This document shows positions 13,536 through 26,700 of a DNA stretch of 64,000 nucleotides, piece after piece. Position 1 is the stretch's first letter. The number at the start of each line of letters is the position of its first letter. The position numbers and the translations under genes are program-made. Source of the DNA: Obrimoposthia wandeli (taxonomy: Eukaryota); the NCBI GenBank assembly GCA_977020255.1, contig CDROCS010000579.1, forward strand, positions 682,001-746,000, written 5' to 3'. The notes under the pieces were generated by a model. The model was not told the DNA's origin. It did not search any database and saw only the letters and a program-made list of their open reading frames with translations.

Positions 13536-15735
13536 TAGATAAAATATAATAAACATAGTATTGAAATATTACAAACTTAAAACAATATGTTAATCAATCC
13601 TATTATTATTATTTTTATTAAATCTATTTAGCAAATGTTAAGCAAATATTCGTCCTCAACACTTTTAGATATATCTAAAATAAATTGCAAATTTATGTTT
13701 CAACTAAAAATCGACGAAATGTGGTGTGATCTTTAGAAATACTATTAAACACAATATTTGAGACAACTAGAGACTCATTTGGCAGTTATTGTCTTGAATA
13801 TTTAAATGATCGTTTTGTTTAATTATCAAATCCGTATTTATGATAGATTTTAATATACAAAAATCCTTACTTCAAATAGACCAAATGAGCTTCGGCTCCC
13901 TTGTTTTGTTTTTTTTCCCTTGTAAGTCATTACTATTTCTATAGACACACTACTTCAAATCATGTTCTATCTTCCGGTGTCAGTTGTAAATAATAAATGT
14001 CTCAATGATATGACTTACGATGAAAAAACGAGCAATTTACTTTTAATTTTTAGCGAAAAAACATTTGGCAAATATAAAAAAATCACGTTGACAAAATTAA
14101 AAATCTTGCCATCTTTGAGATGCTGTTTTTTTACTATAGGCCCTCCCCCATATCCCATTGTACGTCTATGTGTATACAAGATTTATTTCAAGAGTAATTT
14201 GTTATTTCACAAAGTTAAGAACAAATACAAATTATGTTCAGTTATATAAAAGTTTTTTTGGAAAATATTATCTGTTAGAAAACGTATTATTAAGTATGCA
14301 CAATCTTATTACACGGAAAACCTAACATCAAAATCAGTAGCTTTATCTATTTTTCAAACAATTAAAAGATTAAGACAGCAATGTTAATGAACAAGAAGCA
14401 TATTAAGTACACTTTTACCAAAGACAGTCTCTCTGTTTTTCAACAAAAAATTCACAAACAAGTTTTGAATCTGTTTCGAGATCTTTTTAATTAAAAAAAT
14501 ACACACACTTCAAAAAATATATTTTTTTAAATAAGGAGACAATTATATATCATTAGGAAGCTCAAGGAAAGTATTAGTCATTTATTTCTTCGTAAAGCAA
14601 CTTGATGTCGGCATCTGCAGTGCTTCATTACAAATTTAATTTCCATATGATGATCATTGTTAAAATGCAGGAAAGTGCAATCCAGCTGAGCTTCATAATT
14701 GATGATGTAGTTTGTAAATAAGAATAATTCAAAATTAAAATTAAAATTCAACTAAAACTCCTTGTTAGATAAATACCAGAATACTTAGTATGATTGTACA
14801 AGCATTAGTCTTTCATTTATTACATAATTATCTGCATTTCCCCTCAGCATACACATCAGATAAAAAGGAAGCTGAAGAATGTCAAATTTCCGTTAATAAG
14901 TAGTTTTAGCTTAACACAAATAATTAGTTAATGAAAGTATTTTAAAATTTTTAATATGTTGAAAATCGTTGTTTAAAGTGACCATTTCGTGAGAGAAAAA
15001 CAAAAAATTGGTTACCAAAAATTGGCATTTAGAGAAAAAATTGAAATCAAAGCGGAGAAGAAAGTATGTGATCGAAATGAACTGACATAATTGGGAAATC
15101 ATTGATGTCTGAAATAATGTCAGAAAGAGCACACTAGTGTACTTTTTGCTTATCTCGTTGGAAAATAAGACTATTTGGCTCATTAAATCAATGGAGAAAA
15201 GCCAATCGAGCAAATAAAATTCCACGCAGATAAGACCATTAATTTTATTGATTTTCATTTAGAAGGACATTTTAATGTTTTTTAATTTAAATTTCTGGCA
15301 TTTCTATCGAATATGTTTTCTGCTAATGCTTGATTTATTACTTACATTTAGTTGCCTTATTTTGGGTATTTAAATTAGTCGAATGCTTGTTCATCCAATT
15401 CGCCTGTTGTGCAGACCAAAAATAAACCACTATGCATTCATAATAAGAAAGCCACATATAATTTGAGTTATGGGATGCGCTTTGTGATGCCCACTTATGT
15501 GTAAAGGTCGCAATACCGGTAAATTGGGTGAAAAAAAGGATTTTTAAATACCAGCATTTTCAACGCAATGTAAAAAAATGTAATAAAAATACAAGGGACA
15601 CCACAACCTGTACATCTGTATTCGAAACGTCCGCCACTCACCTTGAAGTTTCTTTAATTTATTGAGTAGGTAGAAGGATGGAGTCTAAGCCACTTGACCC
15701 CCCCTAAAGGGTGTCACACCATAAGGGTGTCTTGC

Positions 15736-15796
15736 CACACCATAAGGGTATATGTTGCCTCACCGGAGGTGAGGCAACATATACCCTTATGGTGTG
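15736..15796. repeat. Perfect 29-bp inverted repeat (3-nt loop) within a larger subterminal palindrome
   Basis: CACACCATAAGGGTATATGTTGCCTCACC-GGA-GGTGAGGCAACATATACCCTTATGGTGTG. Confidence 0.95.
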
Positions 15797-16699
15797 ACAC
15801 CCTTTAGGGGGAGGCGGGAGGGGGAGGGGAGGGGGAAAGATAGGGGGGTCAAGTGGCTTAGACTCCATCCTTCTTTGATATACCACTATGGTCGTCCATA
15901 GGTTAAAGGGTCAAGTGGCTTAGTCTCCACCCTTCTTTTTGTGATCTAGTCTCCACCCTTCTTTTTGGTTAACCACTAATTCAAAGGGTCAAGTGGCTTA
16001 GTCTCCAACCTTCTTTTTGTGATCTAGTCTCCACCCTTCTTTTTGGCTAACTACTAATTCAAAGGATCAAGTGGCTTAGTCTCCACCCTTCTTTTTGTGA
16101 TCTAGTCCATAATGAAAATTTAGGATAAAGTTCACTCTTATCAGTTAAGAAATGTGGTTTTTAACACACACATACACTATTTTATGTGAAATTTAGACTA
16201 AAGTTCACTCTTATCAGTTAAGAAATGTATTACGTTATCACACACATACTATTATATGTGAAATTTAGATCAAAGTTTTTTCCAGGCTTACACATTTATA
16301 GAATTATGATAAATTTCTTTAAATAACTTCAATTATATATTAAAATAAAAATAAAATAAGAAAGAAGTCAGAGAATAATACAAAATTAAACACATTTATT
16401 ATGTAATTTCATAATATCATCTTCAAACTTAAATGAATAACATTTACAAAGTAAGAAAGTCCATTCTTTATACATTCTTTTCGTTTCAACGACTAAGTTA
16501 CAACGGAATTAATAGAAAAAGGAAAAAAAAAACAACAACACTAAGTTTAACGCTATGAATGAAAATTAGTAAAAATATTAATTTATTTGAATATTTGAAT
16601 GAGAGTTTGAATAAATGAGAGTTAGAATGAATGTAAATGAATAAAATTATGCATGCAAGTATGAATGTAATTTACAAGTAAGAGTCTTAGCAAGTGAAT

Positions 16700-23424: not shown

Positions 23425-23760
23425 GATCACAAAAAGAAGGTTGGAGACTAAGCCACTTGACCCTTTGAATTAGTGGTTAACCAAAAAGAAGGGTGGAGAC
23501 TAGATCACAAAAAGAAGGATGGAGACTAAGCCACTTGACCCTTTCATAGTGTTATATCACAAAAAGAAGGGTGGAGACTAAGCCACTTGACCCTTTCATA
23601 GTGGTATATCACAAAAAGAAGGGTGGAGACTAAGCCACTTGACCCTTTCATAGTGGTATATCTCAAAAAGAAGGGTGGAGACTAAGCCACTTGACCCTTT
23701 AACCTATGGACGACCATAGTGGTATATCAAAGAAGGATGGAGTCTAAGCCACTTGACCCC
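23425..23760 (+). repeat. About 60-bp iterated terminal-box repeats
   Basis: Units ATCACAAAAAGAAGGGTGGAGACTAAGCCACTTGACCCTTTCATAGTGGTAT; inverse copies at about 15840-16110. Confidence 0.9.
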
Positions 23761-26700
23761 CCTATCCTTCCCCCTCCCCTCGCCCTCCTGCCTCCCCCTA
23801 AAGGGTGTCACACCCTTTAGGGGGGGGTCAAGTGGCTTAGACTCCATCCTTCTACCTACTTTATTGAACTATCTTTTACTCTGATTTAATAAACTGTTAT
23901 ACTAATATCCTATTTTAAAATTATTATATGTAATTACTGATCCTTCAAATTTTAAATTAATATTGTAACAAAGACAAAAGTATTTAATGTTGTAGCAAAG
24001 ACAAATGCTTACTGAGCTAATTGCCATCAAAGTCAGATTGACTTTAAGCAACGAAATTTAGGATATTATGTATATTTTACGAACTCATTTCCATAAAATA
24101 AAAGAGCTTAATCAAAAAAATAAAAATAAAATTTTATTGCTTAATAAAGTAATTTTGTTTCGTATTATTAATTTGTTATTATATGATTAGATTGTATTAT
24201 TTATGTTTTATAATTAAAAAGGGAAATATGTATGTATGTGATTTTATTCTTTAAATAAATTAATTTAGAATTATTTGATTGCTTTCTTTCTTATTCATTT
24301 TCTTTTCTAATATTTTTGGCTTTTATACTAGATATTTAAATTTTTTACCCCTAATACATAATTCTCAATGTTTAATTTTAAATAGTGTTGTAGTAAGTGT
24401 AAAATAATAATGCTTAAAAGCAATTAAGTGATAAATAGTCTAATATTTTTAATTATACTTTATATTGGGTTCCTGCGTCAAATAAAAAGTATGGTTTCTG
24501 GAGTTTCACAGGGATTTTTTACACATACCATTTGGAAGAAGAAGTGGAAAACTGTTTGAAAAAATATTGATGTTAACATCATAGTATAAATAATTTGAAC
24601 CTTATTTATTTCTAATACTTAACTTTTTATCATAGCACACCTTTTTATAAGAAGTTTATGCTAACTAATTATTTACAATGTTTTTCTTAACAAAATGAAA
24701 TGTAAAAATATTTTTAAAATTACCATTTTTGTTAAAAGAGTTTCAAAGATTTAAAAAAATATCTGGATGATGCTAGGCTTACCGGTATTATAAAAGAAAA
24801 TTCAATACCAAAATTCCGAATTCAGCAATTAAGAAACAATATTTCAGTACTAATTTATACTGGGCTATTTTTTATTTTTTAATAATTTTGACACAACTTT
24901 CATTATTTTTTAGAAATTTATATATTTACTTTCTGAAAAACGACTTGACTTGACTTTTAAAGAGCATAAAACGTTTCTTCCACATTTTTTAATGAAATAT
25001 TAGTTTTATAGAAACTCATGTCTACCGGAAATCTGGGACAATTCAATTTTAAGAAATTTTAAGAAAATCGATCTATTCGATATGTGTTTTTATATTTTGA
25101 ATTAATACATATTAATAGTCAACCATAAAGTAATAGCTTCGATACAAAAATTCGCATTGTTGCATGCTGCGTTCTTGATTTTTAATGCTTTTCATAAGCC
25201 TTCCATACGTAAATCCCTAGTTAAAGAAACTTTAATGAATAATTTCAGAAAATTTTAACATTGACATTCATAAATCGTGATTATGTAAGGAAATTACTTT
25301 AAACATTTATATTTTCCGTAACAATTTAAGGAAACAATGAAGATTTCTGATTAAGTTTTATTATATAATTAAAAAACCTTTTTTGAATATAGTAATAGTT
25401 TTAATTTAATTTCTTTCAATCATTATAACCTTATAATATTTAATTCAACAATGAAATAAATTTCCACAATTAGAAACGACAACTTTGGAGTTAGTATTAT
25501 TTAAAAACAATTTTAGACAAAGATAATCAAAATCTACATCATAGTAATAAATTACAAAATGATATTCAAATGGATAAAAATAGCGTAAAATATGAAAAAT
25601 TCATCGCAACAGAAAACACAACAAAATACAAATTACATTAATTATCTTAATTTCGATTGTGTCAACAAAATTTACTTTTCAATCAGAATATTTTCATTTT
25701 CACTAATTCTATTAGAAATTGGCTGGTTCTAATATATTTTTTTATAAAAATAAAGTAAATAATATAAGATTTAACAGTGTATTAAAATTATATAATTAAT
25801 ACATCTGTATTAGTATTACGTCGGATTTTCATTAAATTAATTTAAAATCAGATAAACTGAATGTTACTAGAAATCTAAAATCAAATTAACAGTTTAATGA
25901 ATAAAATTGAAATTAATTAGGTTACAAACTTTTTTGGATGTAATTATAAATTCGAAGTTTGAGTTTGTTTCTCTTGAAATTGAACATTTAACTAGATTTC
26001 ATATTAATTATTAAATACTACAATTTTTTTTTGCAATTTTAAATACATGAAACAAAATATTCTATCTTGTAACTGTTTCTTTTTTTTCTCCTTAACTTTT
26101 TCCTTAGCTAAGGTAATGCAAATTGTATTTATGAAACAGACTTAAGGAAAAAAGTTAAGGATATCCTTGTCTAAAACATTATTATATTGTAGGTTCCTTC
26201 AAACTAAGTAAGGTTCTTGAATACGTCCCTAATGCATAAAATAATCCAATCAGCTGTTGGTTGGTAATTCTCACTTAATTGTGCAATAATGTTAAGTTTT
26301 CCTATATATCAGCTAAAGACATTTAACGGTCTGAATAATTTAACTTGTGATTAACTTGTTGTAATTCATAATAATTTTGAATATTAATAGTACATTTGAA
26401 ATTCAAAACAACAAAAATTTAATGAAAAATAAATGTAAACTTAATATTCTTTGATTTCATATTACTGGCAATAATGCTGACAATTATTCCTCACTGAATC
26501 TAGTGTTTGTTCAAAATGAAAACAAATTACAAAATATTCAGTATAAAAGCACTTAATAAATTTATCGAATTATTAGCCATGGATTTTAGAAATGTATCAA
26601 AAGAAAAATGTCATAAATTGTATTATAATTTATGCAAATTAAAATGTAATTACAAAAAATTAATAGACTAAACTGATCCATAGTTAAAAATATATTTGAT

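Follow-up and report, generated by a model that had tools for sequence, protein, structure and literature searches.

The window analysed here, a 64,000-nt stretch of the Obrimoposthia wandeli genome (GenBank assembly GCA_977020255.1, contig CDROCS010000579.1, positions 682,001 to 746,000 of the forward strand), contains an 8.2-kb element composed mostly of two mirror-image arms of about 3 kb each. With a probability of roughly 0.87, this element is a non-autonomous derivative of a Maverick/Polinton that has lost its genes, kept the cis-acting ends and taken on a foldback architecture. Its integration would have been performed in trans by a Maverick integrase. The Maverick origin, which like the foldback plan was already proposed in the initial annotation, is upheld by the homology of its ends to those of a Maverick bearing the polymerase gene pPolB, by a relic of this gene in the arms and by two 6-bp target-site duplications.

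The element extends from 15665 to 23860, exactly as first annotated, and its near-perfect termini proved to be complementary over 40 of 40 nt (15665-15704 versus 23821-23860). The inverted arms and satellite-like arrays noticed at the outset were confirmed as well. Alignment of the left arm (15665-18653, 2,989 nt) with the right arm (20908-23860, 2,953 nt) yields 2,679 matches and 48 mismatches (98.2% identity), interrupted by insertions or deletions of 81, 26, 43, 120 and 164 nt and by others of smaller size; most of these length differences reflect unequal numbers of tandem copies. The inverted repeat represents 72% of the element and the remainder is satellite. From the terminus inwards, each arm displays a self-complementary block, a 28-nt core of the terminal motif repeated in inverted orientation (four copies in the left arm, six in the right), a 73-bp unit and an array of a 163-185-bp unit; tandem units of 52/78 bp are also located near the ends. 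The left terminal block folds with an energy of -83.2 kcal/mol (z -17.1), a stability equalled by none of 200 shuffles, and 81 nt of this block are missing from the right arm. The multiplied 28-nt cores are candidate extra protein-binding sites. The centre (18654-20907, 2,254 nt, about 17% GC) is not palindromic and is made of a 484-bp unit repeated 4.1 times, followed by about 200 nt of unique sequence.

No gene was identified in the element. The longest ATG-started frame encodes 54 aa and the longest stop-free frame (110 aa) lies within an array and has no Pfam hit. In place of the intact pPolB gene of an autonomous Maverick/Polinton, each arm holds a 21-codon relic; integrase, ATPase, protease and capsid genes are absent, and the 193 open reading frames of 10 related loci matched nothing in the element beyond this relic. 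The earlier statement that the element is devoid of open reading frames is correct, but had overlooked the relic. An Rfam search returned no match. Strand skew was considered as a trace of single-strand exposure; the arms are G-rich yet slightly A-rich, unlike the expectation from deamination alone, and this indicator was not used.

The link to Mavericks is first apparent at the termini. Each of the eight ends of this type found in the window begins with AGTAGGT, and the first 7 nt of the element are identical to those of the window's own Maverick, a decayed copy whose left end lies at 53572. Compared with this end, the first 42 nt of the element reach a score of 39; with the ends of a 168-bp miniature element they reach 33-35. 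The maximum among a background of 104,214 40-mers of the window is 27. The ends are thus homologous, not identical, to those of a Maverick of the same genome, in which a gap of N precedes pPolB. A degenerate element at 46980 joins a Maverick-type end to a 5' fragment of pPolB without any gap, the fragment being situated 1.1 kb inside and 66% identical to that of the Maverick. This degenerate end and the solo end at 5110 both match the Maverick end at 53572 well.

Internal sequence of Maverick origin was also recovered. Upon comparison with 60 pPolB-bearing loci using tblastx, the sole matching region was 23048-23110 together with its mirror 16416-16478 (E 2.5e-5). It corresponds to a conserved C-terminal pPolB motif of loci L015/L013, with 16 of 21 residues identical in the right arm and 15 of 21 in the left, and is detectable at the nucleotide level (blastn, 44/56 nt, E 1.6e-7). 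A profile built from 81 pPolB proteins matches this region as well, over 32 positions (domain E 0.0007), and the two relic copies are its best matches in the window outside the Maverick. None of 60 dinucleotide shuffles reaches this score, 0.009 being their best value, and 0.25 is obtained with the reversed element. Of the 21 codons of the right-arm copy, 11 are identical to those of L015, 5 are synonymous and 5 non-synonymous. In the window's own Maverick, the motif is present in a more distantly related form. Because both the polymerase motif and the ends differ, the parent would be another Maverick family than the decayed one, and on the same sequence differences the helper would also belong to a different family. 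When the 40-aa relic frame was compared to all proteins, two repeat proteins were returned through the summation of weak stretches (best 9.3 and 3.6 bits, versus 25.5 for pPolB), and these were discarded as artefacts.

Several observations weigh against a Maverick derivation, the first of which concerns the register of the target-site duplication. TTATTG is present at both flanks (15659-15664 and 23861-23866), an agreement with a chance probability of about 0.001 given the flank composition. An alternative 8-bp duplication, TTTATTGA, fits the locus perfectly, the element then spanning 15666-23859 with a 39-nt perfect end. This register would be that of a foldback element of the Mutator (or P, hAT or Merlin) type, with GTAG ends and a cut-and-paste transposase, its likeness to Mavericks being due to chance or to captured debris. 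Modular arms with tandem repeats are the very plan of foldbacks, and in the accessible parts of PMC4079207 and PMC3169594 known foldbacks have duplications of 8-10 bp and are mostly of the Mutator type. Maverick debris is in addition common in the window (a second relic is found at 30180-30313), so that capture of a polymerase scrap is conceivable. However, the initial A, which the 8-bp register excludes from the element, is common to all eight ends, and the 168-bp sibling (27221-27388) displays an exact 6-bp duplication and allows no longer symmetric register. The contigs of four public runs, all derived from one sample that is possibly the source of the assembly, were compared over 23770-31900 (24 of the 3,979 loose ends being listed). 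In run X2, 86 contigs leave the element behind 23860 and enter dissimilar flanks (median 255 nt, agreement 0.39), as expected of a family of many dispersed copies that share a sharply defined end. Of the 368 joints, 15 were listed: three of these begin at 23860 and a fourth at 23861, whereas 23859 occurs neither among them nor among the loose ends listed. The 6-bp register was chosen because the eight ends share AGTAGGT, because the sibling accepts 6 bp only and because the contigs exit behind 23860. An empty-site allele would be no discriminator, since the same sequence is predicted by both registers. The exact 6-bp duplication first reported is consequently maintained on the strength of other ends, the 8-bp ambiguity at the locus having been missed. 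Six bp is the duplication length of Polintons in the accessible parts of PMC8097293 and PMC10045372, and not the 8-10 bp of Mutator/FB foldbacks. As the homology of the terminus with a Maverick end moreover exceeds the background, a Mutator-type origin appears very improbable.

The other points to be held against the Maverick assignment are the following. Paired duplications are seen on two elements only. Against the terminus of the element, the degenerate end at 46980 scores 25 and that at 5110 scores 20, both within the background. The end at 53572 is separated from pPolB by 138 N (53799-53936), and a comparison of the Maverick with the 46980 element revealed no significant sub-terminal homology across these N, 24 of 500 shuffles scoring as well. 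The terminus AGTAGG agrees with (AGT)2 at five of six letters, the list of such terminal motifs, (AGT)2 or (AG)3, being drawn from vertebrates only. The polymerase relic is short and its segment is not included in the sister copy described below; a word-based search produced no candidate for it, Pfam was blank, and no pPolB passed E 0.001 among 1.84 billion proteins, a scale at which the equivalent E is about 0.1, whereas the targeted test was significant. Finally, an autonomous element with the exact terminus was not found in the window, in metagenome contigs (29 nt) or in viral contigs (18 nt), and none of 60 loci related to the window's pPolB extends to an element end or resembles the termini. 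A Maverick-type 17-mer had two matches in viral contigs, where agreement ends right after the pattern, and these were taken as chance.

The proposed mobilisation by a Maverick integrase is probable, although no helper with the exact end was found in the window, metagenome contigs or viral contigs. This negative result would also suit a different mover, namely an IS3EU/GingerRoot-like integrase acting on Maverick-derived ends, or an immobile unit spread by host recombination. IS3EU and GingerRoot families generate 6-bp duplications too, but in the accessible part of PMC10045372 their termini are TA..TA or TG..CA, and no such register gives a duplication at this locus. Nor would recombination be expected to leave the complete unit flanked by a fresh and exact duplication, and little credence is given to a mover of either kind.

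Long palindromes are a known artefact of long reads, and a fold-back chimera could in principle have created the mirror arms during assembly. No contig bridges either junction among the matches listed. Against such an origin, 48 substitutions and several indels distinguish the two arms, the sequence between them is no palindrome, the target-site duplication is present on either side of the element, and the four runs of that one sample contain 59-92% of the words of 14000-18700. An assembly artefact is thus hardly credible.

A truncated sister copy (31391-34164), about 90% alike and identical over the first 18 nt, consists of a single arm and the first part of the central array. By segment, the arms diverge from each other by 1.2-2.7% and from the sister copy by 5.6-15%. 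Being closer mutually than to the sister, the arms were therefore duplicated or homogenised after the lineages split, and the unequal array lengths imply that homogenisation is incomplete. Polarisation of 47 arm differences against the sister copy places 13 in the left arm, 6 in the right and 4 in neither, 24 not being alignable. The hairpin block behind the terminus (31455-31530) is highly variable among copies, with many loose ends and indels, which suggests frequent slippage or template switching there.

The family is abundant. Summed depth in X2 and X1 respectively amounts to 1.33 million and 51,000 at the foldback end (position 23820), and to 4.28 million and 584,000 at the Maverick-type end (27239), compared to 44-50 and about 5-6 for single-copy contigs. 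The end depth is thousands of times the single-copy depth, summed depth not being a copy number. Division of the summed depth by 31, the assumed worst-case overlap of 31-letter contigs, leads to rough floors of 300-900 foldback-type ends and about 3,000 Maverick-type ends for this sample. The end type of the miniature is thus more abundant in the reads than that of the foldback. Among the joints listed, seven X2 and two X1 contigs pass from a foldback end to a Maverick-type end (23860/23861 to 27221), and in other contigs an end is followed by foldback sub-terminal sequence. Such end-to-end joints may reflect nested or clustered insertion, and with eight ends in 64 kb they may be no surprise.

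The following scheme would account for the element as a Maverick derivative. An autonomous Maverick would supply the retroviral-like integrase, and perhaps the polymerase, in trans, and the 8.2-kb unit would have been inserted whole, leaving the 6-bp duplication. The derivative would have lost all genes and grown internally repetitive inverted arms around the satellite-like centre, the arms being homogenised via a folded-back single-stranded (racket or panhandle) intermediate. In protein-primed replication, end repeats serve jumping-back initiation. Replication of Mavericks through a single-stranded racket-like intermediate is summarised in the accessible part of PMC4196379. A folded-back replication intermediate would explain the likeness of the arms, and chromosomal gene conversion would do so equally well. 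Replication by pPolB from both ends in the manner of a defective-interfering genome, put forward as a possibility in the initial annotation, would likewise be compatible with this likeness.

A bolder version, which we regard as doubtful, would make the element a true satellite of a Maverick virus. The protein-primed polymerase of the helper would amplify excised copies from both ends; the arms would lengthen and stay alike via the folded-back strand, the multiplied core motifs would give the element an advantage over the helper in the competition for initiation or integrase, and copy numbers in the hundreds to thousands would be reached by the element, together with miniatures such as the 168-bp one, possibly packaged in the helper capsid. 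The element can be likened to copy-back/snap-back defective-interfering genomes and to adenovirus minichromosomes, which are gene-less and display two origin-like ends and long self-complementary arms. Unlike these, it is chromosomally integrated and known from sequence alone.

Known foldbacks are Mutator- or P-type elements with duplications of 8-10 bp, the duplication of Galileo being 7 bp, whereas the present element has a 6-bp duplication and Maverick ancestry. According to the accessible parts of the sources, it shares with Drosophila FB, Tetris (PMC4079207), Tm1 (PMC3169594) and Galileo the modular arms, outer motif repeats, unequal internal arrays, a non-coding middle and a potential for seeding satellites. 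An AG-starting end, terminal inverted repeats and a 6-bp duplication are common to the element and to autonomous Mavericks/Polintons (PMC8097293, PMC10748475), to which its end homology and pPolB relic also link it. Autonomous Mavericks/Polintons measure 13-25 kb, compared to 8.2 kb, and have terminal inverted repeats of 46-1,447 bp (intact vertebrate elements), compared to 3-kb arms. The element also differs from autonomous members in having no intact gene, in a start, AGTAGG, that departs by one letter from (AGT)2, and in an abundance far above the median of 8 copies per genome recorded for vertebrate Mavericks in the accessible part of PMC8097293.

Non-autonomous Polintons are already on record, as far as the available portions of the sources go. 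The family name Polinton-1N1_DR occurs in PMC9341505, Tlr1 is called a non-autonomous polinton in PMC5499653, and mobile polintons lacking polB, as well as 2-kb gene-bearing terminal inverted repeats, are described in insects (bioRxiv 10.1101/2025.02.07.637071); a study of anole found no non-autonomous polintons (PMC3014272). Helper dependence, the retention of ends and the occurrence of long inverted repeats are shared with the element. The polB-less polintons of insects retain virion genes or transposable-element cargo, whereas the element is a gene-less combination of inverted repeat and satellite. No description of a gene-less, satellite-filled foldback Maverick was found in the literature consulted, in so far as it was accessible; Repbase and most subscription journals lay outside the search and may list such families.

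Foldback architecture, hitherto tied to Mutator or P transposases, would gain here a link to a virus-like element that rests on shared ancestry of sequence as well as on the end signature. Mavericks generally occur in few copies, and how they replicate and integrate has been deduced largely from sequence. An abundant gene-less family, whose members in a single window measure between 168 bp and 8.2 kb, would define the minimal cis-acting end and the tolerance of the integrase, and its many natural insertions would allow measurement of duplication length and target preference. The racket model becomes testable, as it predicts arm-to-arm identity across copies and free linear or folded-back forms. 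Should the satellite reading be true, foldback architecture would have arisen by viral copy-back, with no part played by cut-and-paste transposases. Genome annotations probably list elements of this nature under unknown repeats or satellites, and such elements may form a sizeable part of this genome.

Table 1. Coordinates of the element and of related features in the window.
Feature	Position	Strand	Remark
Left target-site duplication TTATTG	15659..15664	+	
Left arm, 2,989 nt	15665..18653	+	first 40 nt complementary to right end
Terminal self-complementary block with end motif, nested hairpins and inverted end-motif copy	15672..15874	+	fold energy -83.2 kcal/mol
Four inverted 28-nt core copies, 78-bp spacing	15846..16107	-	candidate binding sites
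73-bp tandem unit, 2.2 copies	16116..16277	+	
pPolB C-terminal motif relic, left arm, 21 codons	16416..16478	-	15/21 residues
Satellite-like array, unit of about 163-185 bp	16607..17875	+	
Centre, 2,254 nt	18654..20907	.	484-bp unit, 4.1 copies, with shorter sub-periods; about 200 nt unique
Right arm, 2,953 nt	20908..23860	-	own array (about 21519-22898), 73-bp unit, six 28-nt core copies
pPolB C-terminal motif relic, right arm, 21 codons	23048..23110	+	16/21 residues
Right target-site duplication TTATTG	23861..23866	+	
168-bp miniature, Maverick-type ends	27221..27388	.	duplication CATATC (27215-27220, 27389-27394)
Sister copy, partial	31391..34164	+	one arm and start of central array
Decayed Maverick/Polinton	53572..64000	+	left end 53572, continues past window
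Degenerate Maverick-type end and pPolB 5' region copy	46980..48398	+	
Solo Maverick-type end	5035..5110	-	

The decayed Maverick interrupts a Gypsy integrase region with its left end, behind which repeats of 46 bp, 116 bp and ACCAC are found. Its pPolB (PF03175) was recovered by tblastn in pieces over 57645-62700, with stops, frame breaks and a hAT-like insert (about 59575-60450), and matches full-length homologues at 57-60%. Protease-like (62980-63321) and capsid-like (63362-64000) genes follow on the minus strand. Two near-complete 13-kb Maverick-like metagenome contigs, L004 and L009, are syntenic with it, their ends not being captured: the exonuclease-like, protease-like and capsid-like genes match in the same order, and genes for an rve integrase and an A32-like ATPase are present in both contigs.

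A second multi-copy stretch (30026-31385) reaches a summed depth of up to 75,800, compared to about 47, in X2. It holds collinear degenerate pPolB fragments (30180-30313 and 30505-30594) and is possibly the inside of another Maverick-derived repeat entered by the sister copy. Beyond the latter, a large exon of an amiloride-sensitive sodium channel (PF00858) is located at 34677-35402, with one homologue at 50%. Near the start of the window (about 310-420), a degenerate fragment which we take to resemble the 5' end of 18S rRNA falls below the Rfam threshold.

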